A stretch of 64,000 nucleotides of DNA from an uncultured Phycisphaerales bacterium (GCA_963755915.1 CAVWLP010000003.1:128001-192000), one strand, 5' to 3'; counted from the first letter of the stretch, positions 23,315 to 47,557 are shown. The notes: a model not told the origin generated them from the sequence alone. Numbers and translations: made by a program.

Positions 23315-23593
23315 ATGGCGAAGAACAGCAGAACATCACGTAAATGGGGCCAGGGCGCCTTGGGGGCCTATGGCCGGAAGGGCTTGCTGGAAATACAGGC
23401 GGCGGGACCTTTCGGAAATTCCCCAATTGCTGCTCCGACCGACCCTGGAATGCCTGGAATGGCGACGCAGGGGGAGATAGCTCAAGCGCGGCAGGAGGAA
23501 TCGCCGGGGCTGGAAGAAAAGTTTCCCGCGCGCACCGGCATTGGCTTGGACGATCGCGGGCGGGATGACCGTGAAATCGACCCCGATCTTTGA
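23315..23593 (+). CDS. Small hypothetical protein of the mobile element
   Basis: 92-aa ORF with acidic C-terminal tail (DDRGRDDREIDPDL). Confidence 0.45.
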   Translation: MAKNSRTSRKWGQGALGAYGRKGLLEIQAAGPFGNSPIAAPTDPGMPGMATQGEIAQARQEESPGLEEKFPARTGIGLDDRGRDDREIDPDL

Positions 23594-23828
23594 ACTGAAA
23601 GCCATTTGTACAAAGAAGGAGATAGCAATGACGACGCTGCTACTGATTCTTCTCGCGTTTCTGATTTTGATGAAGGGGCTATCGAACAAAATGAGCGAAG
23701 AGCCTGAAAAGGTCAAAGATCATCACAACCATAACGACCCGCCTGGAGCGCAGTGAGTCGAATGCCGCGGGAAAGGCGTTGCCAAGGTCCGCCCGCGGCT
23801 CTGCTCGGAGTTGAACTGGAGACAAGCC

Positions 23829-24050
23829 ATGACCGTCGCGCAGGCCGCCCAGCGAATTGGAATCAGCGCCTCAAAGGTCTATCAATTGGTCGCGTCACGG
23901 CAGATAGGACATTACCGGATAGGCGGTAAGATTGTCTTTTCCGAAGCGGATATCGCGACCTATCTGGAGAACTGCCGCGTCGGCCCGGTCAGCCCCGCAT
24001 CCCCCTCGCCCCGGATGCGCGTGAAACTCAAACATCTCGCCTTCGGATAA
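23829..24050 (+). CDS. Excisionase-family helix-turn-helix protein (HTH_17)
   Basis: MTVAQAAQRIGISASKVYQLV......HYRIGGKIVFSEADI; convergent with the integrase. Confidence 0.85.
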   Translation: MTVAQAAQRIGISASKVYQLVASRQIGHYRIGGKIVFSEADIATYLENCRVGPVSPASPSPRMRVKLKHLAFG

Positions 24051-24157
24051 CCGCCGGCGGACGACGGCAGTCAAGCTACTACTAAATTTCGCAGGCAGCC
24101 GGGAGGTTGCAGAATGCCCCGGCGGGTTGCAGCCCGCCGGGGCATCGTCATCACCGC

Positions 24158-25168
24158 CTACGCCGTTACCCTCCGCAGTTGCTCTTGCAGGAACTCTGGA
24201 TTCTGGGTCAGGTGTTGATAATGGCGGGCCAACATGCTGGTGTCTCTATGCCCCAGCAGCGTTGCCACTGTGATGCTGTCAACGCCGCGCATCAGAGCGT
24301 GCGTCGCGAAAGAATGCCTCAAGGCATATAGGCTATATCTCACGCCCATCCGCTTTTTGAGGCGATCAAAGCGGTTGTTGGTGGCATCGGTGGTCCAGGG
24401 CACGCCATTGACGTTACGGAAAATCGGACCCCGGGGGTTTTTCTCCATCAGCCGCCGCGTAATTTCCAGCGCCTTGGGTGTCAGGTAAACGACGCGCGGA
24501 AGCTGATTGCCCTTTGACTCCGATGCCGGAAAGAACCAGCGGCTCTTAGCCACATCGACGTGACGGGCCTCAACGCGTAGCGACTCCTGTGGGCGACAGC
24601 CGGTCTCCCAAGTAACCGTGAGCAAGTCCTTGAACTGCTGGTCGCGTGTGCGTCCGAGAATTGATTGGTATTCCGCGGGACTAACCACTTGCTCCCTGCG
24701 GCCACCGCCCGGCTTCTTGAAATGGGCCAGGGGTGAGCGGGAGACGTACCCCTGCTCTTCCGCCCAGTTCATCGCACGGATGATGGTGCGGCAGTAATTT
24801 CGCTTGGAGCCGTTCGACAATTCGGGGTAGCCATCGATCCACTTCTGCACGTGGAACGGTTTGAGCTGCCCCAGACGCAGATCGGGTGGAATCGCGTCGA
24901 GAAACAACTGCAAGCGGTCCTTATACCAGCGGTACGTGTGCGGGTTACGGTGCTGGTGGACGAAGTCCAGGAACGAATCGATCACGACAACAACAAGCCG
25001 CGTCGCCTCGGCGGCAGTAACCGACGGCGCCGATGGCTTGCTGGTCAACTCGTGCCATGCGGCAAAGGCCGCACTTTTCTCAGGGCCCAGATTGATCTGT
25101 CTGCCCTCATGCCAAACATACCACAGCCCGCGTGAGGGGCGATAGAAGGGCTTCCGGAAACGCGCCAT
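24158..25168 (-). CDS. Tyrosine recombinase/integrase of the tRNA-Arg island
   Basis: TGCRPQE (Arg), K, YALRHSFAT (H/Y-x-x-R), LLGH, RHY catalytic Tyr; adjacent to the tRNA. Confidence 0.93.
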   Translation of the reverse strand: MARFRKPFYRPSRGLWYVWHEGRQINLGPEKSAAFAAWHELTSKPSAPSVTAAEATRLVVVVIDSFLDFVHQHRNPHTYRWYKDRLQLFLDAIPPDLRLGQLKPFHVQKWIDGYPELSNGSKRNYCRTIIRAMNWAEEQGYVSRSPLAHFKKPGGGRREQVVSPAEYQSILGRTRDQQFKDLLTVTWETGCRPQESLRVEARHVDVAKSRWFFPASESKGNQLPRVVYLTPKALEITRRLMEKNPRGPIFRNVNGVPWTTDATNNRFDRLKKRMGVRYSLYALRHSFATHALMRGVDSITVATLLGHRDTSMLARHYQHLTQNPEFLQEQLRRVTA

Positions 25169-25314
25169 AGCAAACCTCCAGGTAGCGCAGGCGGCCGGAA
25201 GTTGCTGTGGACTTATGGCGAGTTGCAGCTCACCGGAAGTAATTTGGTGACAGAATCGGTGACATTTCAGGTTCGGCGAAAAATATCGCTGCTCTAACCT
25301 GTTGTCTTAAAAAG

Positions 25315-25388
25315 CGTTCCCGGCGGGGCTCGAACCTGCAACCTTCGGCTCCGGAGGCCGACGCTCTGTCCAATTGAGCTACGGGAAC
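25315..25388 (-). tRNA. tRNA-Arg(CCG)
   Basis: Cloverleaf with GTTCCCG/CGGGAAC acceptor, GCTC/GAGC D-stem, TCGGC-CTCCGGA-GCCGA anticodon arm and TTCGAGC T-loop; CCA not encoded. Confidence 0.95.
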
Positions 25389-31129: not shown

Positions 31130-32020
31130 TCATCTGACAATTTCTGTTCCGATACCGGCTTCCGTGTAAATTTCCAGGAGGAGCGCGTGGGGAATTTGGC
31201 CGTCGATGATGTGGGTTTTATTAACCCCGCCCTTGAGCGCGGCAAGGCAGGCTTCCACTTTAGGCAGCATGCCGCTGGTGATGACGCCGCTTTTGACCAG
31301 CTCATCGATCTGGCCGGCGTTGAGGTGACGGACGAGGCTTTCGGGGTCGCGGGGGTCGGTGCGAATGCCGTGGGTGTCGGAAACGACGACCAGCTTTTCG
31401 GCCTTCATGGCGGCGGCGACGGCGCCGGCGGCGGTGTCGGCGTTGACGTTGAGCTTGTTCCCGGCCGCGTCGCGGGCGATCGTCGCGATGACGGGGATGG
31501 AGTCGGCCTGCACCAGGAGCTGCAACAGGCGGTTGTTGACGGCGGTGACTTCGCCGACGAGCCCGAGATCGATTCGGCGGCCGTCGGGGCCGGGGAGATA
31601 GGTTTTCTCGGCGAAGAGGACCACGCTGGAAAGGGAATGGAGGCCCATCGCCTCGCAGCCCTGGGTCTGGATGAAATTCACGATGAAGGCGTTGATCTCG
31701 TTGCAGAGCACCTGCTCGGCGATGGCGAGGGTGCGCTCATCGGTGTATCGGCGTCCCATCACCATCTGGGGTTGAAGTCCGGCAGTTTCCATCTTCTGGT
31801 TGATCGCCTTGCCACCGCCGTGGACAAGGATCGGCTGCATGCCGACGTAGTTCATGAAGACGATGTCGTTGAGAAGGTCGGTAAGGGCCTTCTCATCGTC
31901 CATGATTGAACCACCAACTTTGACGACGACGACTTTATTGTGAAATCGCTGGATATATCCGAGCGCCTCCACGAGTGCGGAGGCTTTGTCGATGGCAATT
32001 CTGTCGATCAGGTTTTCCAT
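31130..32020 (-). CDS. argB: Acetylglutamate kinase
   Basis: VVKVGGS, VHGGGK, GRRYTD, NVNADTAA, GMLPKV, HIIDG..PHALLLEI.T..GIGT. Confidence 0.95.
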   Translation of the reverse strand: MENLIDRIAIDKASALVEALGYIQRFHNKVVVVKVGGSIMDDEKALTDLLNDIVFMNYVGMQPILVHGGGKAINQKMETAGLQPQMVMGRRYTDERTLAIAEQVLCNEINAFIVNFIQTQGCEAMGLHSLSSVVLFAEKTYLPGPDGRRIDLGLVGEVTAVNNRLLQLLVQADSIPVIATIARDAAGNKLNVNADTAAGAVAAAMKAEKLVVVSDTHGIRTDPRDPESLVRHLNAGQIDELVKSGVITSGMLPKVEACLAALKGGVNKTHIIDGQIPHALLLEIYTEAGIGTEIVR

Positions 32021-33707
32021 AGGCGGTTCGAGCCAAAACGAAAGCGGATGAGTCTAGAAGTTGGGAATGGAAGTGTCAAAAATGAGATTGGGGTGCCGCG
32101 TTTTACTTTTGCGATTGTCCTGAGATACTGAAGCGAAGAGCTTTTCATCTGGGGAGCATAGCTCAGCGGTAAGAGCAGGGGTCTCATAAACCCTTGGTCC
32201 CTGGTTCGAATCCAGGTGCTCCCATTCAAAGTTTCGCTCGGAACGGTCGAGATTTCCCCGGTGGTTCCGGGCGAATCTTCCTGTTGGCTTTCAGCGCGTT
32301 TGACTCCGCGGGACTCCGCCGAGGTACGCCGAAATTCGCACCCAGGTGACAAGTCAGGTGACAAGCGATTTCCGGCTGTAACAGGCATTCCATCGCTGCC
32401 CGTTTTCTTGGCTTGTTGAACGACCGGCGAAAGGTTCGGCAGCACGTCAAGAGCCGACGCCAACGCACCCCGGTAGACATGCGAATATCGATCCATGGTC
32501 AGGGTGATGGTGGAATGACGGGCGAGGGTCTGGGCGGTCTTGGGATGCACGCCGCCAGCCGCCAAATTGGAAATAAACGTATGGCGCAGGGCATGGAAAT
32601 CGGCCACGCGATTGGCGTGGTCCCGGTATGTGAGAAATAGCGAAGCCTCTCGCTTTAGGCGATTCTCGTCCGTCTCGGCTGATTCGATCCAATCTTGGCG
32701 TGCATTATCCAAATCTCGCCGGAACATTTTGGACACGGCTGTTTCTGATGGCACGTCGAATGCCTTGGCATGCGGCATCTTTCCCGCAAAATGCACCTTG
32801 AGCACAGCCACGGTTGCTGGCCTTAAAGGCAAAACATCCTCCCGGCGGTTCTTCGCATAGGCCGCGGCGATGGTCACGGAAGGCTCGCGATCTTCAAGCC
32901 GAAAGCTTGACGGCGTAAGACTTCGCAGTTCGCCGGCCCGTAGACCTGTTTCGACCGCCAGCCGATAGAGAAGCGATCTCGCCTCACCGGTCATGTCGTA
33001 ATGCTCCGAACCCTTGACTGTAGCATCCAAGAGCCACCGCAGTTCGTCGGCCGACAGTGCTCGGCGGTCGTGGCGCCGATCCGTTCGCACGTTCAAGCCG
33101 CGTAAGTGAGCCAATGGTGACTCCGCCGCGCGGCCATCTTGAACCATCCACCGCGCGAATTGTTTTGCCGCTTGAAGGTAGAAATTTGACGTTTGGGACG
33201 AGATTCCACGCTCGATCACCCCATCGGCGTTGCGCTGATCCTGCCGCATGCCGCTAAGAGCCGCCTGTAGCTTGCTCGCCGACAGGTCCGACCAGAATTG
33301 AAACCCGCATTCCTCAAACATTTTGCGCGCCGACGAGCAGTCTTTTCGGCATGATTCTGCGTGCTCCCCTTGGCCAATAGCGAGGACTTCCAGTCGTCCA
33401 AATGGACTGCGAGCGGATTGCCAGCAGCAACTTTCGCGGCGGAAAGAATTCCCCACTTGGCCAATTTTGCGCGAATAATTCGCGGCATCGCCTCCACGGA
33501 CCGTCCCAAGTCCGGTGTCATTACATCACTGCCGGCATGTATGCTGTTGAGACGATCAATGACCTTGGCCAGGGAATCGCTGGCGCGTCGATCTTCAAAC
33601 AGCGGCAGTCGGCGCAAGGTCTCGGAATAATCGACAAAAACGGCGTACCATTTCTCCGATAACTTGTGCTGTCCATCGGTCCAATATGGCATCTTTCGCA
33701 CTTTCAT
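32008..33707 (-). CDS. Tyrosine integrase reading through attL and the antisense strand of the tRNA (frameshift ~33330)
   Basis: TGLRAGEL, AKN, FHALRHTF, LARHS, DRY catalytic motifs; frame stays open across the tRNA to TGA at 32008. Confidence 0.9.
32152..32224 (+). tRNA. tRNA with CAT anticodon, most likely tRNA-Ile2 (lysidine type); elongator Met not excluded
   Basis: GGGAGCA/TGCTCCC acceptor, GGGGT-CTCATAA-ACCCT anticodon arm, CCTGG-TTCGAAT-CCAGG T-arm; G1-C72 pair argues against initiator Met. Confidence 0.92.
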
Positions 33708-33711
33708 CGCC

Positions 33712-34131
33712 TCATCCCTTCCTGGCGTAATGCGGGCGGCTGGCAACAACATCTAGATTTAGGGCCACCAGCATCGCTTCGATATAGCTCAGGCCAAGCT
33801 GCCGAAATCCCCGGAGAAATTCGTACACCGCCGATTGAGTGAGAGTTGGGCAGTTTTCTTGAGCGGCCTTCCAAAGCTTGTATCGCGTCATTTTTCGGCG
33901 GCCAAGCTCTTGCAGAATTGCCGAACGTATACGGCTCGGCAGCGGTTTTATAATTCGCCCATTCGCATCGCGTCGAATGGGATTAGATCCCATCGTCGGC
34001 TCACGGTCACGCTTGACTCGCGCATCCGATCGGGCCATCGCCTTGCGCAATCGGTCCAAGTCAGCAGGGGTCGTTGGTGGAAGCTCATCGTACTTTTTAT
34101 GAACGATGCCGCCGGCGGATTTGTTCGACAT
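33712..34131 (-). CDS. HTH protein, putative antitoxin partner of BrnT
   Basis: C-terminal XRE-like HTH (MTRYKLWKAA...LTQSAVYEFLRG); overlaps the 3' end of brnT. Confidence 0.6.
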   Translation of the reverse strand: MSNKSAGGIVHKKYDELPPTTPADLDRLRKAMARSDARVKRDREPTMGSNPIRRDANGRIIKPLPSRIRSAILQELGRRKMTRYKLWKAAQENCPTLTQSAVYEFLRGFRQLGLSYIEAMLVALNLDVVASRPHYARKG

Positions 34132-34433
34132 AGGCCCTCTTTTCTTCGGAGTTGGCAGCGCGCTGCGCTGATGATGCGTGTGATCTGCTCTTCTTCGTCT
34201 GTGCGCTCCGTCCATGAGATTCGTGTGATAAGGTCGCGATTTTCAGGGTGCGAGCCGAATGTGCAATATCGGTCTTCTTTATCGCTGTGGTCATCATCAT
34301 AATCCTCGACCAAATAAAGGTCGCCATCCTCCTGCCCCAACACCTTGGCCGCATCGTCAAACGATACGCGATGATGGCGTATATTCGACGCGGCTTTTCT
34401 CGCGTCCCACTCGAACCGCCAATGGAGCCGCAT
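34097..34433 (-). CDS. BrnT-family toxin (frameshift ~34160)
   Basis: FEWD.RKA.SN...H.VSF.DA..V...D..HS..EDRY..FG...RIISA(R).A...EKR.Y. Confidence 0.82.
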
Positions 34434-34506
34434 ATGCCCTTTCCAACGCCGCCATTACAGGCAGCATATTACCTATATCGGTAGCAATCAAGTCAAAATC
34501 GACAAT

Positions 34507-34809
34507 TTATGCCCGCCGGCGATCTTTGCCGTTTGCCAACCACCGATCCCGTGGTGGGCTGCCTGAGTTGAACCAATCAATCAACTCCTGACGTGACCAT
34601 CGCACGGCCCTGCCCATTCGGACGGGCAAGGGCCCAAGCCTGCCAGTCTTGTGCAGAGAGTAAAAGTGCGATTCGGAAACTCCCAGAAGCGCCGCCGCCT
34701 CGGCCGCCGATACGCCAAGCGATTCGGTACGCGTGTGATATCGGAGATGAGTCGGCAGTCCCGTCTCATCGAACAACCTGGCGGGCTGTTTTTGCAGCGT
34801 CGATGCCAT
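34507..34809 (-). CDS. AlpA/excisionase-like HTH protein
   Basis: VSAAEAAALLGVSESHFYSL...G..P.PVRMGRAVRWSRQELIDW. Confidence 0.85.
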   Translation of the reverse strand: MASTLQKQPARLFDETGLPTHLRYHTRTESLGVSAAEAAALLGVSESHFYSLHKTGRLGPLPVRMGRAVRWSRQELIDWFNSGSPPRDRWLANGKDRRRA

Positions 34810-34921
34810 GGCCTTGCCTCTGATTTCCGCCGCACAGCGGAGCCACAGCAGATGTTATTATCGTCATTAACAATGTCAAACAGAATTTGCGGAGTTTCCA
34901 GGATTGCGGTGCGCTCGCTGG

Positions 34922-35149
34922 TCAATCCTCGGTTGGCGTGACGCCGAATCGTTTATGGTGCTTCTCGGCAATTGCAGAGCGGATGGCGGGCTTCGATTCC
35001 AACCAGTGCAGGATCAACGCTTCGAGCACGTGCTTGGGATTCGCAAGATTCCTAGCGCAATCGTACTCAAAGTCGTCAAATAGCTTCTGGTTGAACCGGT
35101 AGGTTCGCTGTACCGTCTGAAGTTCCGGGGAGATGCGGGGGCGTGCCAT
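34922..35149 (-). CDS. Small DNA-binding-like protein (possible ribbon-helix-helix)
   Basis: MARPR start, alternating QRTYRF strand followed by two helices; AGGAG RBS; upstream inverted repeat CATGGTA...TACCATG (35176-35206). Confidence 0.5.
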   Translation of the reverse strand: MARPRISPELQTVQRTYRFNQKLFDDFEYDCARNLANPKHVLEALILHWLESKPAIRSAIAEKHHKRFGVTPTED

Positions 35150-36179
35150 TCTATCTAGCTCCTTCCTGAGATCATCATGGTAACCATCTATTCCAAGCGT
35201 ACCATGTTTTTAACGTTAACAACTTACGCGAGGGTAATCGCCTTTAACGGCATTCGGTGTCCTCCCAGGCACAAAGTTTCTCTTCAACCCCGCAGCCAGA
35301 AGGGGGTTGAAGAGAAACGGCGAATAGCAGAAGGACCGAGCGCAGGCCCTGCCGTCGCGCAGGGATGCAAGACGTGCTGCCACGCGCAGGCGGTACTCCG
35401 TCGAGCATGGCGGCCGGCTTGTCGCCCGGAGCAGGCTGGGCGCAGCGGCGGAACGTCAGCCGAGTTGCGAGAAACAGTCTGACCTCGGCGGATTTCGCGG
35501 GGCACTATATGACATCGATGACGATTGAATCGTTCCGCAGCACAGTCTTTCCCGCAGCCACTCACAGCGGACGGCTTTCGCGCGGACGGGGTGGCGGTCA
35601 ATCTGGATGGCCCGGAGGGAGGGAGATTGTCGGCCGCCCCGGCCGCGTACAAGGGAGCCATGAGGTGGGAGCGGATTTTAGGGATAGGCTTTGCATACGC
35701 ATTGAACGAATTCAGGGTTTCTACATGTTGCGCAAGAAGTCCTGGCCCGACATAGCAAGCCTTTGCATTCTTCACAGGAACTACCCGGAATTGATTCTGG
35801 CCAAACAATAAGCCCATTGGGCGAATCGACAGGTGACTTTGAGCCAACGACTCGTTGCACTAAATCGCCAAACAATTGATCCACAGACCAAGAGGCACCC
35901 AAAGCGGGGGCTCGCAATGCCCGCAGCCGCCGAACTGTTGCCGGTCGGGGGACTAACGTAAGCCGAGAGGGTGTACCCGCCGTTTACCAAAAATCCACTG
36001 GACTGTACCGTTTCGGATTGCGATTCGAAATCGAGTTGACCTGCTTGGATACTTCCCGATGAGCCGCTCAATGTCCAGGTAGTGCCATTCAAAGTGGCAG
36101 GTCCCAAGCTCGCCGTCGCACCGATAGCAGTGTAGACCCAGTTTGGCGCGGCAATATTATCGACCGTAAATGCACCGGT

Positions 36180-37547
36180 GGGAAGCTGAACGCTGGAATT
36201 GGACTGAATCCTAACCAAATATTCGAAACCCCCCAGTGGGACCTAAGCGTCGAGGCAACGCCTCCGCAACTGACCACTTTGGCCGATCAGCCACTTGGTA
36301 ACAATGATTCCCTGACATTTAGCGTTGGGGCGGAAGCGGAAGCTGATATCGGACCGGTATCGGCGGATTGGCAATACACAATCGCAAGCTGGACGCCGTT
36401 CGCGATTCCCTCGGGATCGAGCACGTTCAAGCTCTTGCCCCCTCAAGGGCTTGGGCAATTCACAACAAGCTTTGGTATCGGGAGCGACCAGGTCTTTCCG
36501 TCGTTTCTTCTGTCCGTCTTCGGACAGGCTCAATTATCTGGTCAATTTGAAGTTCCTCTAACAGGCACGACGCGAGCCGTGATTAGCACGTCCTCTGTCG
36601 CCGCCGTCGCCGGCCAACCGTTGCCTCCAATTACCGTGACGCTCGAAGATGCGCTTGGGAATGTGGAAACCGACGACGATTCGAGTGTTACTCTTTCGGT
36701 TGCCCCCGATCCCGTTCTCTACGGCACGACGACGGTTAATGCGGTCGATGGTGTTGCGACCTTCGATAATCTCTACCTCGATACCAGCGGCAACTATAGC
36801 TTTGTCGCGACAGACGCTACCGATGGCATCACGACCATCGTCTATCCAAGCCCTGTTACTGTCGCCGCGTCAAAAGCAACCCATCTCGCGTTCATAGAAG
36901 GGCCAAGCGACACAACGGCCGGAAACGCGATCAGCCCCGCGGTGATGGTGGCTGTCGAAGACCAATACGGCAACATCGTTACGACCAACAATTCCAGGGT
37001 AAATCTAAATCTCGTCGGCGGCCCATGCGAAGCATTCCTGTTGGGCACGGCAAACCTCCAGGTCCAAAATGGCGTGGCCACGTTCAAGGGTTTGTCGATT
37101 CTCAAGGCCGGCGATTATTCGCTCAAGGCAACGGATCGCGGTCTGGCCGGCGCCACATCCGACACCTTTGCTGTGACGCCGGGCCCGGCCGTTCAAATGC
37201 GATTTGTGGATCAATTCCCGTGGCTGGATTCCTCCGGCAAAGATTTCAACGTGCAGGTTGCGCTTTACGACAAATACGGCAACCTGGCAACGAACGACAC
37301 TTCCAGCGTCACGCTGTCACTGGGCGCTCATCCAAAGAGCGGAGTATTGACCGGCAATATAACCGCCGCGGTGGTGAATGGCATTGCCACCTTCGACAAT
37401 CTCTCGCTGAGCGAAGAGGGGTTGTACACATTTGTGGCAACTGACAGCGGCGGAATTCCGGCGATTAACTCGCGGCCCTTCCTGGTAGGCGATTGGAAAT
37501 TTTGGCGGGATTGTGATCGTAATGAATCACTCCTCCAGGATATATGA
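36180..37547 (+). pseudogene. C-terminal fragment of a large surface protein with three Ig-like repeats
   Basis: Repeated V..ED..GN....D.S.VTL......L.G......V.GVATF..L....G.Y...ATD motif; no signal peptide or clear start. Confidence 0.65.
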
Positions 37548-37675
37548 TTGCCGTAACCTCCGCTCGAAATTGCTTCTCTTAATGATATGGCGCGAAGTTC
37601 AACTAATCGGGTTCTTCCGGGCCTCGCGACGGATACGGCCGCATCACATCGGCCGCTTAAGAAAAGGAAAACATC

Positions 37676-38584
37676 ATGATCATGCCTGCCATGAAATGGC
37701 TGCGAAGCGCCGCCTGCGCGGCGGCTTTATTATCCCTCTTCGATGGAACATTCCCGACGGTCGCGGTTGCCAATCCGACCATCAGTTCCGTTCAACTGAC
37801 CGGCAATCCGGGCGACTATACCATTACGATCGACGGCGCTGGATTCGGCGGCTCGCCCGTCTCACCAGGTTATGTCGGAGATACTTCTGATTTCCGGATC
37901 GCTGATGCGGCGCAGTTAGGCTTCGGTGAATGGGGATTCACAGGTGACGCAAAAACACTCACCTATCAAACCTGGTCGGACGGCCAAGTCGTCCTTTCCG
38001 GATTTGGCGGTTCCCCGGCCGATGCTCTTGCGCTTGCGATCTGGAATCCCTCGACGGGTTTGGGCGCAACCTGGGGTGGAAACGTGCCGCCCACCAATTC
38101 CTCCACCCCGCAAATATCCAGCGTGACGTTCTCCGGCTCCGGCGCCAATACCACGATGACGATCACAGGTTCCGGCTTTGGCAGCTCCCCGTTCTCCGGC
38201 CCATTCACCGGCGATTTGAACGATCTCCAGTTCCTCGATTTCCGCACGCCCAGCAATGGAGCTTCGTCTTTATTTGGCGCGGGCGACGAGGGCTTTGGCG
38301 ATATCTCCCCCTACAGCGTCACCCTCAATTACCAGTCCTGGTCGAATAATCAGATCGTCATCACCGGCTTCGGCGGAACCTATGGACAAAACGGCGCGAC
38401 CCTTGACGTCGGCGATCCGGTTACCGTCACGCTGTGGAACTCCGCGGATTCAAACGCTGGCGGCCCGCAAACCGCTTGGGGCGGAATCGTCACCGTGCCG
38501 GAACCCGCATCCGTGGGTTCGCTTATCGGCGGCTTTTGCGTACTGCTCGTTCGTCGCCACCGGTGCAAACAAACCCAGAACTAA
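37676..38584 (+). CDS. PEP-CTERM surface protein with a duplicated IPT/TIG-like domain
   Basis: P.ISSV..G.....TI.G.GFG.SP twice; C-terminal VPEPAS-hydrophobic-RRHR. Confidence 0.85.
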   Translation: MIMPAMKWLRSAACAAALLSLFDGTFPTVAVANPTISSVQLTGNPGDYTITIDGAGFGGSPVSPGYVGDTSDFRIADAAQLGFGEWGFTGDAKTLTYQTWSDGQVVLSGFGGSPADALALAIWNPSTGLGATWGGNVPPTNSSTPQISSVTFSGSGANTTMTITGSGFGSSPFSGPFTGDLNDLQFLDFRTPSNGASSLFGAGDEGFGDISPYSVTLNYQSWSNNQIVITGFGGTYGQNGATLDVGDPVTVTLWNSADSNAGGPQTAWGGIVTVPEPASVGSLIGGFCVLLVRRHRCKQTQN

Positions 38585-38618
38585 CCGCGTCGCGGCACAC
38601 GTTGTCTGGAATTGAGGA
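38581..38618 (+). repeat. 38-bp stop-to-RBS intergenic repeat, copy A
   Basis: 33/38 identical to 39221-39258. Confidence 0.8.
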
Positions 38619-38630
38619 AAGGACTTTGCC

Positions 38631-39224
38631 ATGTTCACGAATACTAATGCCATGTCTTTCTGGTCATCCTTCCTGTGGTGGTGGTCATCAATGCCACTTT
38701 TGTGGGAGGGGTTATTCGTCCTTTGGATTGTTTGTCTCTGGCGGGTTTTCGCCAAAGCTGGCCAGCCCGAATGGGCCGCGCTCATCCCCATCTACAACCT
38801 CGTCGTACTGCTGAAGGTTTGTCGGCGACCGATTCGATGGATCGTCGATCTCTTTTTCGTCCCGTTACTGGGTGTCATTGCCGCAATTGTAGTTATGGTA
38901 ATATTCACTCAACGAGCGGTCAGCGACCAGGACCCAGCCACCGCGGCGATTGGCGGAGTTCTGGCGTTCGTGCTGTATGTCTGCGGATTCGTCTACGGAT
39001 TGGTCTACGGGATTCGTCTTTTGATCTCACTGGGTCGAGTCTTTGGGAAGGGCGCGGCCTTCATCATTGGGCTCATCATTCCATTTACTTCAATTATATT
39101 TTGGGCGATTTTGGCCTTTGATGGCTCCGATTACCGAGGTGAAGGGTCGACTTCGCCTAAGTTGGCTCCGGTGGCTGGGATTCCAGCAGTCTCAAGGCCC
39201 TTACCTTCTGCGAGTCCGAGCTAA
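38631..39224 (+). CDS. DUF5684-family membrane protein
   Basis: WRVFAKAGQPEWAALIPIYN..VLLK...FGKG..F.IGL......F..ILAF. Confidence 0.75.
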   Translation: MFTNTNAMSFWSSFLWWWSSMPLLWEGLFVLWIVCLWRVFAKAGQPEWAALIPIYNLVVLLKVCRRPIRWIVDLFFVPLLGVIAAIVVMVIFTQRAVSDQDPATAAIGGVLAFVLYVCGFVYGLVYGIRLLISLGRVFGKGAAFIIGLIIPFTSIIFWAILAFDGSDYRGEGSTSPKLAPVAGIPAVSRPLPSASPS

Positions 39225-39258
39225 CCGAGTCGCGGCGCGCGTTGTCTGCAATTGCGGA
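39221..39258 (+). repeat. 38-bp stop-to-RBS intergenic repeat, copy B
   Basis: 33/38 identical to 38581-38618. Confidence 0.8.
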
Positions 39259-39267
39259 GGTGCTTTT

Positions 39268-39633
39268 ATGCGGTATAGGATTCTTCCAATCATCATTCTT
39301 GCGATTGTTGGAGCCGGCGGATTCGTGATGCTGAAGGAGTCCAATCGTCCGGCTGTCGTTACTCCGGCAGCCGAGCATATGATTCTACACGGAAGTTACG
39401 TCTCCACCGACCCTAGGCTTGGCTATTTGATTGATTTTGATAAATATCCGGGCACCGCCTGGTTTCTCGCTGGTCAGGGAGGCGCAATGGCCTCTGCGTA
39501 CACCGTGAATGGAAATACGCTTCACCTCGCCATGTGCATACTGGACCTTACGCTGATGCCGGACGGTACGATCCAATGTCCTCCCTGCTTCGGTCCCATG
39601 CAATCAATCGTCATCCTCAAAAAGCGTGGCTAG
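39268..39633 (+). CDS. Hypothetical protein with N-terminal membrane anchor
   Basis: GGAGG RBS; hydrophobic N-terminus. Confidence 0.55.
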   Translation: MRYRILPIIILAIVGAGGFVMLKESNRPAVVTPAAEHMILHGSYVSTDPRLGYLIDFDKYPGTAWFLAGQGGAMASAYTVNGNTLHLAMCILDLTLMPDGTIQCPPCFGPMQSIVILKKRG

Positions 39634-39669
39634 TTGCAATCGCCCGCTGCTCTGTCTCGAGAAGCAACC

Positions 39670-41125
39670 ATGTCAAATATCCAAAAAGCAATTAGCATCA
39701 CCAATGCACTTCTGCTCGCGACGGTTGCGGTTTTGTTTTTCCTGCCGCAGTGCCGGATCGAATCTCAAGCCTATCAATCCACACTCACGGGATTGAATCT
39801 CACCTTGGGCACGACTCCGTATACGCATGTCGAGGGCATGTCCGACGCGGATTACCAAAAGCTTGTTGACATGATCCAGGGCATCCGACAGACAGTGGGT
39901 CAGCCTAAACTTCAAGATTACACCAACCCGGCATTCCTGGGCGTGCTCTTGTTGTCGGCATCGCGGCCATCGCATTCTTCAGTGATGTCAGTAAAGCGCA
40001 AATCAATTCGTTCGGTGTTCGGGTCAGCCGTGATCTTCGGGACTGTGCCGTGGGGGGGGTGCTGATTCTGTTCATCATCTACGGGATAAGCGGCTTCAGT
40101 TCCGAGCAAGCAATGAAAGATCAGAACGCACAGTGGGAAAAGACGATCGCGCAACTCAAGACGGATACCGCAAACAACCAAGCGCAGAATGCCGCAGCTA
40201 TGGGGGCCGATCTTGCGCGAGCTTGGGGAGCGAGCGCCGCGTCGATGCAGGATACGGCGCGAGCCTCGATGGAGCGGATGATCGCCACGATTCAAAAAAC
40301 TGTATGGTTTGACTTGGGCTTCGCGCTATCAGGCACCGCTTTATGCCTGGCGATTGCCGTGCGGTTCACTGGTAAGGTGCCCACGACGTTGGCAGATCGT
40401 CCGATGTCGTCCGCATCCACGGCCGGACAGTTGTCAGAACATTCCGCGAGCGCCGATGCATCTACACATTCCGGTGGGACATGGGATTCGATTAAGACTC
40501 GCACAATGCAATTCGTCGAAACAGCCGAAGCCAAGGCTGCAGAGGCCGTTGAAGCGGGTAAGGTTGAGGTACGACTACATCACGAAAAATCGGCTGTTAG
40601 CGCATGTAATAAGCAGTTGGATCAACTCGCACTTGAATGCGGCGCGTCCGCAGCCGACGTCTCAGCTTTCTCGGATTCGACGCTTCAAGCGCTGCGCCAA
40701 AAAGCTCTGGATGCGCGACAAAAGATGAAAGAAAGCCAATCGCAGCACGATGCGGCGGTGGAGGAGTTGGGCGCATTGACGCGAAGGCAGACCCCACAAA
40801 GGCAGCAGAATTGACCGCCTGGATCAAGGCGACGGATGCCACTTTGCGCCGTCAACAGCACGATTTGGACGCGATTTTGAAAGACTTGGGAACTCGCGTG
40901 CTGGCGGCAAATCTTGCCGAACCCAGGCTTGCCGGATTCTACCGACAGCGGAACGAAATCCAACTGCAAGCCGATGAGCACTCTGCTAACATCGCACGAT
41001 TAGAACAGGAACAGGTTGGACACAAGACATCCCTTGGGTTCAACACGAGAAAAGCAATCATCATCGGCGGCGCAGCCGTTGTCGCGCTTGTGATTTTAAT
41101 ATGGATCGTCACGGAATCGATGTAA
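39670..41125 (+). CDS. Hypothetical membrane/coiled-coil protein (several frameshifts)
   Basis: Consecutive overlapping ORFs 39634-40065, 40050-40814 and 40637-41125 with TM helices and heptad-rich segments. Confidence 0.5.
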
Positions 41126-41200
41126 GGCGCGGTACACACCGGCGAGCAATTTGCCTGCGCTGCCGGGCAAATCGCGAATGTAAAGTGAGGAGATGTTTCC

Positions 41201-42235
41201 ATGCGACAACTGATACTTGCAATGTTGATCGTGACAACTCTTGGCGCGTTGGCGATAGCCCAACGCACCGCCGATTTGTCTTCTCCGCCGCCGCCGCCGC
41301 CGCCTTCTCCTCCTGCTCCTTCTCCCGATTCTCAACCACGTGGACTCGTCCATTTTGACTTTTCCTCGATGAATATGGATCAGGTAAATGTATGCGCGGC
41401 AGCGACATTGTCGTGCATTCCAAACCCTGAATCTCGCGATCGCCAGCAGAAGCTCGCGATGAATCGCATCGCACAGCTCAGCAAGTGGACCTCCAGTTTT
41501 AAGGCTGCAGGTGGCAAAGATATTTTCGCCGTGATTGGAGGCGGGAATGGACAGATTGAATTGGACGAGGTGATTGTTCCGCTTGACGGCGCCAATCCCG
41601 ACGAATTGGAGAAGGCGATCCGTGCATTCAACTCGCTGGAATGGGTGTCGATCCCGCAGCAGAGTAAGCTCGTGGGAAAATCTTTGGTCTTTTCGTGGCC
41701 GGGGTCGGAAAAAACGGACAATCCGTTGGCCCACCCACCGCCCGAATGGGCCGACGCCTTGGGCCCTGGCAGAAGCGCGGCAGTTCGTGCTGCGCTTCCG
41801 GGAAATCTGCTAAATTGGACTCCGTCCGGTTTTATTTATTGCATGATGACCGGCGAATCTCCGCTCGGCGATGCTCCTTCGAACTCGCCTTTGGATTCCA
41901 TATCAGTGACTTCGATTTCTCTCAGTATCTCACCGAGGGGGTCTGTCGCTTGGAGTTTTCAGTGTGCGGATGCCAAGTCAGCCGATACCCTCTCAGATTA
42001 CATGAATGCTGGCTTCGAGAACTGGCGTGAGAAGATCAAGGAGAGCGCCGCGGATGAAAAGGGAGTCAACCCGCAGCAAAACGCCATGATAGCAGCGGTC
42101 AACGATCAATTCAGCAAGCTCCTAGCCATAATGAAGCCTAAAGCGGTTGGCTCACAAGTTACGACCATGTTGGATCAAGATGCCGTCGGCAGCTTCATCC
42201 TTCTCGCGACAGGATCGTTAGCGGGGGTTCAATAA
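41201..42235 (+). CDS. Secreted hypothetical protein with poly-Pro linker
   Basis: GAGGAG RBS, signal peptide, 344 aa. Confidence 0.65.
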   Translation: MRQLILAMLIVTTLGALAIAQRTADLSSPPPPPPPSPPAPSPDSQPRGLVHFDFSSMNMDQVNVCAAATLSCIPNPESRDRQQKLAMNRIAQLSKWTSSFKAAGGKDIFAVIGGGNGQIELDEVIVPLDGANPDELEKAIRAFNSLEWVSIPQQSKLVGKSLVFSWPGSEKTDNPLAHPPPEWADALGPGRSAAVRAALPGNLLNWTPSGFIYCMMTGESPLGDAPSNSPLDSISVTSISLSISPRGSVAWSFQCADAKSADTLSDYMNAGFENWREKIKESAADEKGVNPQQNAMIAAVNDQFSKLLAIMKPKAVGSQVTTMLDQDAVGSFILLATGSLAGVQ

Positions 42236-42248
42236 ACGATGTCTTATA

Positions 42249-42452
42249 TTATTCTACCTTTCGCGTAGCTTGCACCACGCCGACGATCATCTTACGCACG
42301 TCAATTGGCAATGTCGGCCATGCCATGGTCACCGTGGTTAGGTCAGCGTCTTGCTGCGCGGCAGGTGACAAGTCGGGTGACAAGCGATTTTCCTCGGTGG
42401 GCGCAAGTTGTTGATTCTCCTGCTCGTTGCGACCATCATTCAGGGGTCTCAT
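42249..42452 (-). CDS. attR-proximal ORF: predicted C-terminal tail of the integrase in the excised (attP) form
   Basis: Begins MRPL in the same register of the att core as the integrase; contains NRLSPDLSP as the integrase does; ends in an amphipathic DLTTVTMAWPTLPIDVRKMIVGVV segment. Confidence 0.7.
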   Translation of the reverse strand: MRPLNDGRNEQENQQLAPTEENRLSPDLSPAAQQDADLTTVTMAWPTLPIDVRKMIVGVVQATRKVE

Positions 42453-42491
42453 AAACCCTTGGTCCTCGGTTCGAATCCGAGTGCTCCCATT
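42441..42491 (+). repeat. attR: displaced 3' part of tRNA-Ile2/Met
   Basis: 47/51 identical to 32176-32226; all 4 differences are compensatory in the T-stem. Confidence 0.95.
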
Positions 42492-42595
42492 GCGATTGAT
42501 ATTTGCCAGAATTATGTTTTAGTTTTCCCCCTGCGGTATAATTTGGTATTCCCGCCGGGCAAGGAGGCCCGCGATTTTGCCAGGGATGGTGCCGC

Positions 42596-43624
42596 ATGAA
42601 TCGAATCAATTCGGTTACAGTTCTATTTTTTGCCCTCAGTGGAATTCCCATGTTTGCCAGTGCTGGCCCTGTCGCCTCGGCGACGACGCAGCCGGATTTG
42701 ACGGTTCTGGACAAACTGGACGACAGACTGAAGATTGGGCAGACGGCGGGAAATTTCACGGCGCTGGCGGATCTGACCCGTCCGAAATTCATCTGGGGCG
42801 GCCGGGACATGCTGTGGATCATGCACGACGGGGCCGGCAAGCCGATGTTCGCCATGAATCGGGCGTACGATCTGAAAATCGGCACGCAGCAACCGGCCTG
42901 GTTCCTTCTGGAATCGCACGATTACTGGTGGGATGACCCTGACGGCCCAATGCTGATCTACACGCGCTTCGTGGATGCGCATCCGCTGGTGGTAGTGCGC
43001 GATCCGACCCGGGGCGTCATCTACCAGGCCCGCTGGGATTCCGCCCCGCAATCCGGCAGCGGGGCCATCACGCAAACGCGTAATATTTTTCTTCTTTGCG
43101 ATGGGGAACATCGCTGGCACCTGCTCGGCGAGGGACCGATCGGATCCCGCGGCCAATGCGGGGGCGACGAACAAATCAACGATGCCGTGGAAGCCGATGC
43201 GCGATGGGCGGGAAATCCTGCCCATCCCGTTGAATTGTCGTTCACGATGTTGACGACGGACCTGTGGGACTATGACGGCGAGAATTTCCATGAATCGATG
43301 ACGGTTCGGCGAAGAATGGCGCTGGGACCTGTCGATTCCTCGGGATATTCGAATCCTGAGGCGGTCGCGGATACGTCGCCCGGTCCGTTCAAGCGGCAGG
43401 GCGCGTATTACGTGATCGCTTCGAAAAGGGAATCTCTCGACTCGTTTGTCCGGAGGTTCTGCCGGCTGGATCTGCTTGGGATGAAGGATGAATCGCAAAA
43501 GCGCACCTTCGTGGAATCGACCGAGGCGGCGATTCGAAAGACAAATCCCGGGCTGAGCGCTGCGATCGCCAGCGGCCAGGCGATTGTCCTTCCGGAGAAG
43601 ATGTACCGGTTCGGCGATAACTGA
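42596..43624 (+). CDS. Secreted hypothetical protein, possible degenerate LysM-like C-terminus
   Basis: Signal peptide followed by ATTQP; C-terminal IRKTNP.L...I..GQ.I.LP. Confidence 0.6.
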   Translation: MNRINSVTVLFFALSGIPMFASAGPVASATTQPDLTVLDKLDDRLKIGQTAGNFTALADLTRPKFIWGGRDMLWIMHDGAGKPMFAMNRAYDLKIGTQQPAWFLLESHDYWWDDPDGPMLIYTRFVDAHPLVVVRDPTRGVIYQARWDSAPQSGSGAITQTRNIFLLCDGEHRWHLLGEGPIGSRGQCGGDEQINDAVEADARWAGNPAHPVELSFTMLTTDLWDYDGENFHESMTVRRRMALGPVDSSGYSNPEAVADTSPGPFKRQGAYYVIASKRESLDSFVRRFCRLDLLGMKDESQKRTFVESTEAAIRKTNPGLSAAIASGQAIVLPEKMYRFGDN

Positions 43625-46099: not shown

Positions 46100-47557
46100 C
46101 TACAACAATGGGGAGAGCAACGAAACGGCGTTGTCGGCGTATTCGCTGATGGCGGGGCGCTTTTCCCATTCGTTGGAAGTTAGCTGACGGGAGCGGGAGA
46201 GATAGATGTTTTGTATATCGCGGAGGCGCTGGGTGATGGGCTGGCCGTAGAGGAGGACGCTGATCTCGAAATTGAGGGTGAAGCTGCGGACGTCGAGATT
46301 GGCGGAGCCGAAGAGGGCGAAGGCGTCGTCAACCGTCGTCGTTTTGGAATGAAGGAGGCCGCCCTCATAGAGATGGATTTTGACCCCGCCGCGGAGGAGG
46401 GAGCAGTAATGGGATCGTCCGGCGGCGGCGGCGAAGAAATGGTCGGCGACAAAGGGGAGAATGAGCTTTACATCGACGCCGCGATCGGCGGCCATCATGA
46501 GGGAGAGGATGGTTGCCTCATCGGGAACGAAATAGGGGGTGGTTAGGATAAGCTGATGCTGGGCGGACTGGATGGCGGCGAGGAGAAGGCGGCGATAGGT
46601 GAGGTCGCGGTTGGTGGGGCCGGTGGGAACGACCTGGGCGGGGAATTCCTGATCGGCGGGGTTGCTGGAAGGCGAATCCTGGCGCTGGGGATAGGGGATG
46701 TCGATTTCTTCGCCGGTTTCGAATGCCCAGTCTTCGGCAAAGACGGAGGCGACCTCGCCGACGATGGGACCGGTAAAACGGGCGGAGACGTCGACCCAGG
46801 GATTTCCGTGGCGGCCGCCGTAGTCGGGGTTGATGATGTTCTGGCTGCCGACATAGGCGATCTGGCCGTCGATGACGGCGAGCTTGCGATGGTTGCGCAG
46901 GTCCATGCGGGCGAGGCGGCGCCGGATGGGGGTGACGGGGAGAGCGGCGGCGACGTGAACGCCGTCGGAAATCAGCTCGCGGGAAAGGCCGTGAGGCTGG
47001 AAGAATTTTCTGGAGGCGAGGGCATCGACGAGGAGACGGCATTTGACGCCGCGGCCGACGGCGCGTTTGAGCTCGAGGGCGACGGCGCGGGCGGAGGAGT
47101 CGCCGGCGAAGATGTAATAGAGGAGGTTGACGGACTGTTTTGCGGCGGCGATATCGGCGCAGAGGCGGTCGCGGAAGATGCCGGAATCGGGGACGAAATC
47201 GAGACGGTTGCCGGCGAGGACGGGCATGCCGCTGATTTTTTCCGCCTGGCGGATCATGGGCTGGTAAGAGGGGGTGGCGTCGGGGGTAGTCGCGTGGGCG
47301 GCGCGTTCGGCGTGGCGCTGGGGATCGCGGAAGCGGGCGATGATGTCGCGATGGCGCTGGGTTCGGCGCGGGCCGAGACGGCTCTCGCCGAGCAGGAGAT
47401 ATAGAACCACCCCGATATACGGATGCAGAAAGATAATTCCGAGCCAGGCGACTGAAGCCCCCGGCGCGAACTGGCGGCGGAGGACGACGGTGACCATGAT
47501 CGCCCGGATACTCCAGCCGACGATGGCATAAGAGAGATAAAAGAGAAACCAGCCCAT
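46100..47557 (-). CDS. cls: Cardiolipin synthase
   Basis: Two N-terminal TM helices; two HKD motifs (NHRKLAVIDG, LHSKTTTVDD); GSANLD.RS. Confidence 0.92.
   Translation of the reverse strand: MGWFLFYLSYAIVGWSIRAIMVTVVLRRQFAPGASVAWLGIIFLHPYIGVVLYLLLGESRLGPRRTQRHRDIIARFRDPQRHAERAAHATTPDATPSYQPMIRQAEKISGMPVLAGNRLDFVPDSGIFRDRLCADIAAAKQSVNLLYYIFAGDSSARAVALELKRAVGRGVKCRLLVDALASRKFFQPHGLSRELISDGVHVAAALPVTPIRRRLARMDLRNHRKLAVIDGQIAYVGSQNIINPDYGGRHGNPWVDVSARFTGPIVGEVASVFAEDWAFETGEEIDIPYPQRQDSPSSNPADQEFPAQVVPTGPTNRDLTYRRLLLAAIQSAQHQLILTTPYFVPDEATILSLMMAADRGVDVKLILPFVADHFFAAAAGRSHYCSLLRGGVKIHLYEGGLLHSKTTTVDDAFALFGSANLDVRSFTLNFEISVLLYGQPITQRLRDIQNIYLSRSRQLTSNEWEKRPAISEYADNAVSLLSPLL

Follow-up and report, generated by a model that had tools for sequence, protein, structure and literature searches.

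Integration at tRNA genes appears to detach a conserved C-terminal module from the tyrosine integrases of planctomycete islands

Introduction

In the Myxococcus phage Mx8, as described in passages of two reports (PMC6070905, PMC4383910), the coding sequence of the tyrosine integrase includes a tRNA-derived attP core beyond the catalytic domain, and integration gives int a new 3' end while leaving the catalytic part intact. In archaea, the relevant section of a recombinase review (PMC8371274) describes SSV1-type suicidal integrases, in which the att site lies within the gene and integration partitions it; the same section calls suicidal integrases carrying their own att site exclusive to archaea, and presents an att site inside an integrase gene as a compact exchangeable module. 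In integration-dependent immunity, as outlined in part of the CyranoPS preprint, the mycobacteriophages BPs and Brujita and the corynephage CyranoPS have attP in the 3' end of a gene, whose product is truncated by integration and changes its behaviour.

The locus described here lies in an uncultured Phycisphaerales bacterium, on a stretch of DNA of 64,000 nt (the window, to which all coordinates refer), and its arrangement follows the IntP/IntX principle of Mx8, although the tail is unrelated and previously undescribed. As in Mx8, the attP core sits inside the int reading frame 3' of the catalytic Tyr, host codons replace the C-terminus upon integration, and the total length is similar (Mx8 Int has 533 aa; in its translation an embedded tRNA-like peptide is followed by ~110 more residues). 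Mx8 is a single phage, whereas here we find a phylum-wide habit of small islands that are not phage-like, in which a short conserved tail is common to several integrase clades and either end of the tRNA gene, 5' or 3', can serve as the core, read in sense or in antisense. The tail itself has no detectable homology to Mx8 Int (hhalign probability 0.2) and no tblastn match in 50,697 phage records, and Mx8 is absent from the 12 integrase matches.

The SSV1-type integrases share with this locus an att site inside the integrase gene and a gene that is partitioned on integration, but there the cut goes through the enzyme proper, which is presumed to be inactivated, whereas here the catalytic domain with its Tyr stays whole and only a C-terminal module is removed. 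Integration-dependent immunity likewise places attP inside the 3' end of a gene whose product integration truncates; in those systems, however, attP lies in the repressor, while here it lies in the integrase and the lost piece is a two-helix module, predicted to be structured, without conserved terminal residues. In the work of Broussard from 2013, the split gene was reportedly the repressor and the lost piece a short degradation signal. Our literature searches (supplements aside) turned up no description of this tail or of planctomycete integrases that span attP.

Results

An integrative island in a tRNA-Met gene

The island is an integrative element that occupies a tRNA-Met gene, with its insertion point in the anticodon-loop region (Table 1). 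The repeat copies at its two ends are identical over 25 nt (32176-32200), a block that holds the crossover region (the anticodon stem-loop), and then differ at 4 positions that form 2 compensatory T-stem pairs; these differences indicate that the T arm at attL is derived from the island and the T arm at attR from the host. The regenerated tRNA-Met consists of host DNA in its 5' part and of island-supplied DNA from the T stem onward.

The cargo consists of surface or membrane proteins, and no phage structural genes were recognised within the island. The HTH_17/AlpA-like gene precedes the integrase and shares its strand. The ORF with the BrnT domain, which comparison with short-read contigs shows to be disrupted by an assembly indel at 34163, probably encodes one partner of a toxin-antitoxin system. 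Elsewhere in the window, a weak integrase match at 47189-47356 falls in a 485-aa ORF that by eye is unlike a recombinase.

Table 1. Positions of the features of the island and its integrase in the window
Feature	Position	Strand	Evidence
Host-derived read-through, 55 codons and stop, after four shared-core codons	32008..32175	-	Translation, ORF list
Tyrosine integrase gene, integrated form	32008..33707	-	ORF list; Pfam PF00589 E 5.1e-15
tRNA-Met(CAT) gene, regenerated at attL	32152..32224	+	ARAGORN; anticodon at 32185-32187
attL copy of 51-nt direct repeat	32176..32226	.	Repeat search, family D2, 92%
Linker coding region, catalytic domain to core; also integrase-side arm of attP	32201..32472	-	Sequence
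Island body, ~10.2-10.3 kb, G+C below flanks	32201..42440	.	Sequence composition, repeats, Pfam
Candidate arm-type sites, integrase side, two tandem CTTGTCACC-type units	32342..32365	-	DNA search, 0 and 1 mismatch; repeat D10
Catalytic domain, ends just past catalytic Tyr region	32473..33057	-	Pfam match, residues 134-328 of 482-residue frame
ORF with BrnT toxin domain	33948..34433	-	Pfam PF04365 E 4e-13
HTH_17/AlpA-like small DNA-binding protein, candidate excisionase	34507..34809	-	Pfam PF12728 E 1.1e-8
Detached integrase tail ORF, 67 codons	42249..42452	-	ORF list, translation, in-silico joining, homologues
Conserved two-helix module, tail residues 35-63	42264..42350	-	Alignments A1 and A2
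Candidate arm-type sites, tail side, two tandem CTTGTCACC-type units	42361..42384	-	DNA search, repeat search
attR copy of 51-nt repeat, displaced 3' fragment of original host tRNA-Met	42441..42491	.	Repeat search

The integrase frame runs through the att core

In the window the integrase is covered by two frames, an N-terminal one at 33216-33707 and a C-terminal one at 32008-33456, with a shift near 33329 that was overlooked by the initial annotation, which gave one gene running from 33707 to 32008. In three runs (X1, X2 and X4) the short-read contigs all have one extra C behind 33329; the frameshift is therefore an assembly indel and the gene is not dead. The PF00589 match scores 56.1 bits against a curated cut-off of 27.1, and by eye the translation contains an H-x-x-R box (...FHALRHTF...) and a downstream Tyr (...DRYSH...), segments that we take to hold the catalytic residues.

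From 33456 the minus-strand frame stays open down to its stop at 32008-32010, so that the tRNA is read antisense. That no stop precedes the core, and that an M codon lies opposite the CAT anticodon, had been noticed at the outset, and both ARAGORN and the translation confirm the coordinates. The gene is split ~90 codons beyond the end of the Pfam catalytic domain, and the read-through that follows the core is antisense to the 5' half of the tRNA and the DNA upstream of it, overlapping the start of an amino-acid kinase gene (31130-32020, Pfam AA_kinase). Host-derived C-terminal codons number 55 in the window and 5 to about 60 in the nine other integrase-tail pairs described below.

A detached tail at the opposite end of the island

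At the other end of the island, the tail ORF directly adjoins the attR core with the register preserved, and its ATG in the window is the tRNA-Met anticodon read backwards. When the island ends are joined in silico, a single open frame leads from the integrase through the core into the tail. The initial annotation had proposed precisely this, namely a 67-codon ORF opening at the attR codon in identical register, a circle encoding the integrase with a 63-aa tail, and an integrated state encoding it with a 55-aa host tail; each of these statements agrees with our ORF list and translations.

The conserved module spans ~30 residues with the pattern D/E-L-x-x-V-V-x-A-W-P-x-L-P-x-x-V-R-x-x-I-x-x-x-V, in which W45, L48, I56 and V60 are invariant in a 7-sequence alignment. 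Compared with a 91%-identical relative, the tail has 8 nonsynonymous and 11 synonymous differences (pN 0.053, pS 0.225); the resulting pN/pS of ~0.23 shows purifying selection. We also considered the tail's first helix as a copy of the segment that follows the catalytic Tyr and rejected this origin: 8 of 120 homologues had a post-Tyr match to the tail profile, all with domain E > 1.

Taken alone the window locus is weak evidence, because open frames of such length are common in this G+C-rich DNA: 156 stop-free codons begin at 13% of six-frame window positions, versus 0.2% in shuffles.

Recurrence of the arrangement in other islands

We examined 16 homologous tails and, for ten of them, found the partner integrase on the far side of a tRNA-derived repeat (five in this genome, window included, and five in other genomes). 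All ten pairs are in frame, for which the chance, by frame alone, is (1/3)^10. The tRNA, the part of it that forms the core (5' or 3') and the integrase clade vary among them, and this recurrence in frame places the arrangement beyond chance. Conservation of the frame in homologous islands, which had been predicted from the window, holds for every tail that could be paired.

The four further islands of this genome have integrases that are 26-38% identical over the matched stretches, each with a homologous tail in frame: the tRNA-Gly island, with a 29-nt 3' core read in antisense; the tRNA-Cys and tRNA-Val(cac) islands, with 5' cores read in sense; and island A of a tandem array at tRNA-Val(gac). 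In the five other genomes (G322, G238, G389, G247 and G068; 5/5 in frame), tRNA-derived repeats of 36-56 nt bound islands of 4.9-12.2 kb; the G238 integrase went undetected by six integrase queries.

The tail is not obligatory, since the integrase of island B, a member of the same family at tRNA-Val(gac) in this genome, stops ~35 residues past the catalytic Tyr and its partner site has no tail. Six of the 16 tails were unpaired. One is an orphan in this genome; in G397 and G118 the repeat was present and an integrase ORF was not found, in G200 and G190 there was no repeat within 40 kb, and in G001 the stretch of DNA examined was too short. A 468-residue open frame ending in the G001 tail was rejected as a fused integrase, being a long frame of spurious origin. 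None of 7 loci taken from a tighter tail alignment (A4) had an integrase inside the 10-kb flank.

Fused forms and spread of the tail

Fused integrase-tail genes exist in nature. One of them, P0233, sits in the metagenome contig L074, where an island of 7666 nt at tRNA-Gln is repeated exactly in tandem; the gene spans the junction of the two copies, and an orphan tail marks the left end of the array. Such a junction could also have arisen if the assembly had merged a circle with an integrated copy. Terminal overlap, a sign of a circular contig, was seen in none of L074, L121, L131, L133 and L138. A metagenome search with P0233 gave 69 loci, and one with P0165 gave no match.

Among 401 genomes of the phylum, 58 have a match to the tail profile. 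Association with tRNA sites, which the initial annotation had proposed to check, was seen at 17 of 29 tail loci: these have a tRNA or tmRNA gene, or a fragment of one, within about 300 nt upstream. At E <= 1e-3 the profile finds at least 4251 representative protein clusters; among the best 150 of these, 144 are <=150 aa and none is integrase-sized. As to the accompanying question whether free integrases end in the motif, 6 of the 120 listed database homologues of P0003 are fused forms ending in the tail. Of ten tail clusters looked up, eight are named, every name being 'hypothetical protein', and many database tails start inside the tRNA-antisense peptide. We found no family in Pfam or NCBIfam that describes the module.

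A search for the circle in metagenome data, also suggested at the outset, was unsuccessful: no attP or attB joints, and hence neither a circle nor an empty site, occur in the contigs of four soil-metagenome runs mapped on 31700-42900, contigs being assemblies that drop rare forms. Loose contig ends at 32151-32226 and 42448 resemble tRNA-Met genes of other organisms.

Candidate arm-type sites in the linker DNA

A peptide repeated in the linker and the tail (LSPDLSP) had initially been read as a protein feature; it coincides with repeated DNA that resembles arm-type sites. A 29-nt DNA repeat (32343-32371 and 42362-42390, 97%), with two tandem CTTGTCACC-type units per copy, causes the peptide NRLSPDLSP to occur twice. 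The candidate units are situated ~150-165 nt before the core on the integrase side and ~80-95 nt after it on the tail side. Repeats are found on both sides of the core in 4 of 5 attPs of this genome and also in L074, and the positions of the repeated motifs (roughly -150 to -210 on one side of the core, +70 to +95 on the other) follow a pattern common to other islands.

Predicted structure

The model of the P0003 homologue has a confident core, a linker (388-482) that is predicted to be disordered (pLDDT < 50), and tail helices at 486-492 and 499-511 with pLDDT ~92, a value that leaves their docking place undefined. The solved folds nearest the P0003 model are the Brujita, lambda and Tn1549 integrases, with Brujita Int (5vfz) as the best Foldseek match. 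Heterobivalent (lambda-like) integrases combine an arm-binding domain at the N-terminus with repeated arm sites on either side of the core; the alignment of the model with full-length lambda Int (1z1b_B) covers 376 columns, and the model opens with two strands and a helix. Complex prediction for the P0003 core (1-390) and tail (470-518) scored 0.00 in both runs, which lacked controls and count neither way on binding.

Discussion

The in-frame pairs, the fused tandem junction, the fused forms among the listed homologues and the low pN/pS support the initial proposal that the small orphan ORF encodes a C-terminal piece broken off the integrase, and that integration and excision exchange C-termini. 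These observations bear on structure; the further suggestion of the initial annotation, that the exchange may control directionality, oligomerisation or stability, is a hypothesis about function. We regard the split-integrase architecture as very probable. The overall explanation, that the island integrase gene spans its own attP and that integration detaches a C-terminal module with a presumed effect on activity, appears likely to us; that recombination differs measurably once the tail is gone is an evenly balanced proposition.

In this architecture the lambda-like integrase gene continues past its catalytic domain through a poorly conserved linker of ~90-130 codons, predicted to be disordered, whose DNA serves as the attP of the element (a tRNA-derived core with flanking repeated motifs), and ends in the conserved two-helix module of ~30 residues. 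Integration cuts the gene inside the core, so that the catalytic part stays at one island end, fused to the following host codons, while the module is left at the opposite end, where it looks like an orphan ORF; the full gene is restored when the island is excised or when a second copy lies in tandem. We infer that the full-length enzyme made from the circle would be the form tuned for integration, and that the truncated chromosomal form may be altered and probably less active, by analogy with what is reported for Mx8; the gene structure itself would then bias the element towards staying put. The tail may dock either on the body of the integrase or on an adjacent protomer.

A bolder version, which we offer tentatively and with the balance somewhat against it, sees the tail as a directionality device. 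The tail would be needed to build the integrative synapse and dock in trans, on an adjacent protomer, across the long flexible linker, and since integration physically removes it the element would lock itself in, with a competent enzyme restored only by the circle or a tandem copy; the disordered linker would be a coding sleeve, evolved to accommodate attP in full with its arms and core.

It is also conceivable that the architecture is real but neutral, attP overlapping the 3' end of int as a compact travelling int-attP module with a dispensable tail and no regulatory consequence. Island B, which does without read-through and tail, would fit such a reading, as would the exchangeable-module view in the section of the archaeal review mentioned above (PMC8371274). 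A dispensable piece, however, is not expected to be in frame across at least 100 unconserved codons in ten cases out of ten, and this tail is conserved across integrase clades that are ~30% identical or less and across the 4251 clusters, is under purifying selection, and is predicted as a confident structured module after a disordered linker. We therefore consider neutrality unlikely.

Gene callers predict the tail as a separate protein, named 'hypothetical protein', and in the window it has an ATG start, as though it were an independent small gene (e.g. a regulator or an excision helper) beside the att site. But this ATG belongs to the reversed anticodon, and in the tRNA-Gly island the stop-to-stop frame contains no Met from the tRNA fragment up to a point shortly ahead of the conserved motif; with a frame continuous with the integrase in all ten pairs, fused proteins, and many database tails beginning in tRNA-antisense peptide, a separate gene seems highly improbable. 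Still harder to believe is mere coincidence at the window locus, that is, a chance read-through in G+C-rich DNA next to a tail left behind, in decay, by an integrase that used this tRNA earlier. The frequency of long stop-free stretches in the window and the presence of tandem arrays and orphan tails in this genome would allow for it, but there is no gap and no shift of register between the attR core and the tail ORF, its changes relative to the 91%-identical relative are mostly synonymous, and the same geometry occurs nine further times.

On this reading the Mx8 arrangement, hitherto treated as a one-phage curiosity, is what several integrase clades normally have throughout a bacterial phylum, and coding DNA doubles as a complete recombination site. 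It would offer a clean system in which to test directionality control encoded in gene structure, with full and truncated enzymes, attP and attB all readable from sequence. For annotation, a tail ORF that abuts a tRNA or tmRNA fragment would indicate an island end and point towards the integrase, and at least 4251 'hypothetical' clusters could be re-labelled as integrase tails. Should the tail be a directionality device, thousands of 'hypothetical' small ORFs by tRNA fragments would be displaced integrase ends, and as such precise marks of island boundaries.

An integrase gene split at the attachment site of its own island

The island at 32201-42440 (~10.2 kb) is bounded by a 51-nt direct repeat, whose left copy (attL) comprises the end of a tRNA-Met gene and whose right copy is attR. 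The G+C content is 0.53-0.58 between the repeats, compared with 0.59-0.65 outside. The two copies are identical over their first 25 nt, and the 4 positions at which they differ make up two T-stem pairs with compensatory changes. These compensatory differences imply that the T arm of the working tRNA-Met is derived from the element, the host T arm having been displaced to attR; their position after 25 identical nucleotides places the crossover in the anticodon stem-loop region. The cargo ORFs gave weak matches only, to surface proteins or DUFs, with no phage structural families among these matches.

The integrase frame reads the tRNA antisense and is stop-free up to the core, the tRNA-derived repeat common to attL and attR. 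After the core it ends 55 host-derived codons on, where it overlaps the beginning of a gene for an amino-acid kinase. A 67-codon ORF, here called the tail, begins at the anticodon copy in attR. When the island ends were joined in silico, integrase, core and tail ORF formed one open frame, confirming the proposal of the initial annotation that the integrase reads through the att core in register with the tail ORF.

That annotation had the integrase running from 33707 to 32008 with no stop before the core, which stands; it had missed that the window sequence splits the gene between two frames, with a shift near 33329. Four soil-metagenome runs were compared over the region. Contigs from three of them (X1, X2 and X4) all have an additional C behind 33329, so the integrase is in all likelihood intact. 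Further single-base indels relative to the metagenome contigs occur at 34163, 35675, 35732, 39959/39960 and 40768. The indels were seen in two or three runs, except that 39959 and 39960 were each seen in a single run; they suggest errors in the window assembly by which ORFs are broken, among them those of the integrase and the BrnT region. None was reported within 32008-32480 or the tail ORF, and the contig pieces are gapless over 32298-32621 and 41921-42819.

Features of the split-integrase island and of other loci in the window
Feature	Position	Strand	Remarks
tRNA-Met(cat)	32152-32224	+	ARAGORN; anticodon 32185-32187
Direct repeat, 51 nt	32176-32226 / 42441-42491		92% identity
Tyrosine integrase	frame 33456->32008	-	PF00589, E 5.1e-15
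BrnT-domain ORF	33948-34433	-	between HTH_17/AlpA-like gene and integrase
HTH_17/AlpA-like gene	34507-34809	-	first in minus-strand order, before BrnT-domain ORF and integrase
Tail ORF	42249-42452	-	67 codons
422-aa ORF	36279-37547		
tRNA-Pro(tgg) call	37275-37369	-	ARAGORN; 95 nt
Second island	14725-25388		
tRNA-Arg(ccg), left	14725-14799	-	ARAGORN
tRNA-Arg(ccg), right	25314-25388	-	ARAGORN
Integrase, second island	24158-25168	-	tyrosine type, 336 aa
TraG/VirD4-type coupling protein	22041-23480		second island

The second island is a classical arrangement, lying beside the split one in the window: its integrase is oriented away from the tRNA, and the att site lies outside the gene. It also carries the coupling protein and IS21-type genes. 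The resemblance of its two tRNA-Arg(ccg) genes is confined to ~44 nt of their 3' halves, which suggests that the left gene is a displaced fragment. The tRNA-Pro(tgg) called within the 422-aa ORF is probably spurious.

Split genes in the same genome and a fused gene in metagenomic DNA

We found no Pfam or NCBIfam family for the tail. Used as a query on the window's own genome (G000), it returned further copies, and relatives of the integrase, 26-38% identical over the stretches matched, adjoin tRNA genes there. At tRNA-Gly(gcc) the core is a 29-nt 3' end read antisense, and the in-silico circle has a frame of 532 codons with a homologous tail at its end. At tRNA-Cys (core ~18-nt 5' end), tRNA-Val(cac) (22-nt 5' end) and island A of a tandem array at tRNA-Val(gac) (18-nt 5' end) the core is read in sense; the circle frames are 535 and 531 codons for the first two, and the third circle is also in frame. 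Thus 5/5 integrase/tail pairs of this genome, window included, are in frame. In the tandem array (G000:C2:3529165-3566837), a 5' fragment and a tail at 3529165 are followed by island A and its integrase; then come another fragment at 3538784, island B and, last, an intact tRNA. Island B is an exception: its short integrase stops before the core, ~35 residues after the catalytic Tyr, and no tail was found at its partner site.

The integrases at tRNA-Cys (C2 2214726-2214801) and tRNA-Val(cac) (near 3031041) target the 5' end of the tRNA. In Islander, 159 of 3919 islands have 5' fragments (PMC4383910), making such islands an uncommon class. An orphan tail, the second-best match in the genome (G000:C2:3575380-3575574, minus strand), lies 2.4 kb from a tRNA-Leu(caa) on the same strand; no integrase or tRNA repeat was found near it.

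A word-indexed search for longer tail-bearing proteins yielded P0003, a 518-aa PF00589 integrase with the tail at its end and a tRNA-like peptide in between; the tail stands at the end in 6 among the 120 P0003 homologues listed. The gene of P0233, another such integrase, lies on a metagenome contig (locus L074, 3652-18957) where the two copies of an exact tandem repeat (7666 nt, period 7639) meet. The tandem, a duplicated island at tRNA-Gln(ctg), has an orphan tail at its left end and a second integrase copy that reads into the tRNA, and its junction holds a full-length integrase-core-tail gene in frame. Since the tandem junction is attP in sequence, the gene is here observed in DNA, and not only constructed in silico. 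An assembler could have built the tandem by merging a circle with an integrated copy; in either case the sample contained the junction.

Recurrence across the Planctomycetota

A profile of seven tails matched 58 of the 401 genomes sampled across the phylum (E <= 1e-3), and 37 of 243 among those of high quality; the module occurs with several integrase clades and at several tRNA sublocations. For nine tails the DNA examined extended 40 kb downstream; for a tenth (G001) it was a 20-kb stretch around the tail. In five genomes (G322, G238, G389, G247 and G068) an integrase ORF crosses the partner copy of a tRNA-derived repeat (36-56 nt), and the join is in frame; the G238 integrase clade was not detected by the six integrase queries. 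Within 40 kb downstream of the tail, G397 has a 45-nt repeat and no integrase ORF, G118 a 15-nt repeat only and no integrase, and G200 and G190 no repeat. G001, with 20 kb covered, is under-sampled; a long open frame considered there as a fused integrase was rejected as spurious.

Altogether, 10 of the 16 tails examined are paired with an integrase, and all 10 are in frame. These pairs agree with the expectation that homologous islands would keep the frame between the two parts. Using cmscan, a tRNA or tmRNA gene or fragment was found <=~300 nt upstream of the tail in 12/20 loci and 5/9 further loci (17/29, placement being read off the tail-hit coordinates). In four or five of these 17 loci the tRNA or tmRNA is complete and on the tail's strand, which would be a third configuration, with a 3' core read in sense.

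Predicted structure and candidate arm-type sites

In the AlphaFold2 model of P0003 (146-row alignment) the lambda-like body is predicted with confidence; the linker (388-482) stays under pLDDT 50, and two short helices (486-492 and 499-511) reach ~92. The best solved matches in Foldseek were the Brujita, lambda (376 columns, arm-binding domain included) and Tn1549 integrases. Several integrase clades have a motif (A/K)-T-G-(T/S)-(D/N/E) in the linker, ~25-35 residues after the catalytic Tyr (KKTGSDG in the window); linkers are otherwise unconserved.

The five attPs reconstructed from the window's genome have direct repeats around the core in comparable positions, at about -150 to -210 towards the integrase and +70 to +95 towards the tail. 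The Met attP has two tandem CTTGTCACC units on each side of the core, the Gly attP a 16-mer, the Cys attP GTTGGACCA and the Val cac attP GACAGCAGTTG. In the Val gac attP there is a tandem CGACAGCAG, confined to the integrase side. In L074, repeats of 23 nt and 14 nt lie at about -109/-140 and +105/+84. Chance alone would give about one exact 9-mer per 825 nt, so that weight rests only on the longer repeats and the common positions. We read these repeats as candidate arm-type sites. The NRLSPDLSP repeat noted in the initial annotation is indeed in the tail, but what was taken for a protein motif would then be the translation of these sites. The whole attP (~300 bp) appears to lie inside the coding region of a tolerant linker.

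Alternative explanations, family size and selection on the tail

That the window locus arose by chance is scarcely credible in our estimate, with the in-frame pairs elsewhere in view. Stretches of 156 stop-free codons begin at 13% of six-frame window positions versus 0.2% in shuffles, so an open frame alone is weak evidence here. 

An exhaustive profile search with the tail returned 4251 representative clusters at E <= 1e-3 (74 at E <= 1e-10); among the best 150 of the 4251, 144 are <=150 aa and none is integrase-sized, with the motif at the C-terminus. Names were obtained for 8 of 10 clusters looked up, in every case 'hypothetical protein'. The closest ESM Atlas clusters are unnamed ~70-aa proteins, chiefly from Planctomycetota, and MAGs of Tepidisphaeraceae, Tepidisphaerales, Phycisphaerales and Planctomycetota make up the named genome records with close tails. 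The tail ORF might instead be an independent small gene, but since fused forms exist we consider this very improbable.

The split could also be a neutral side effect of packing int and attP into a compact module; this is unlikely, though less so than chance or a separate gene. The right end of the window island aligns over 3.27 kb (89% identity) with locus L067, from one of the named MAG records, and the tails differ by 8 nonsynonymous and 11 synonymous changes. These counts are small, and the resulting pN of 0.053 versus pS of 0.225 points to purifying selection on the tail frame.

Comparison with known systems and proposed function

In phage Mx8 of Myxococcus, integration gives int a new 3' end and changes the behaviour of the enzyme without inactivating it, according to a review (PMC6070905). 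The principle is the same, an int 3' end swapped by integration; however, the tails are unrelated and Mx8 is a single phage. In the archaeal suicidal integrases, by contrast, the enzyme itself is split, and another review calls them exclusive to archaea (PMC8371274). Integration-dependent immunity systems split the repressor rather than the integrase. Literature searches revealed no account of this tail, nor of attP-spanning integrases in planctomycetes. The principle is known, and the conserved tail module is new.

We propose, by analogy with Mx8, that the full-length enzyme encoded by the circle would be the one competent for integration. The tailless enzyme of the chromosomal gene would have lower activity, and stable residence would be favoured. 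Excision or tandem insertion would restore the full gene, and the element would in this way have a memory of its own state.
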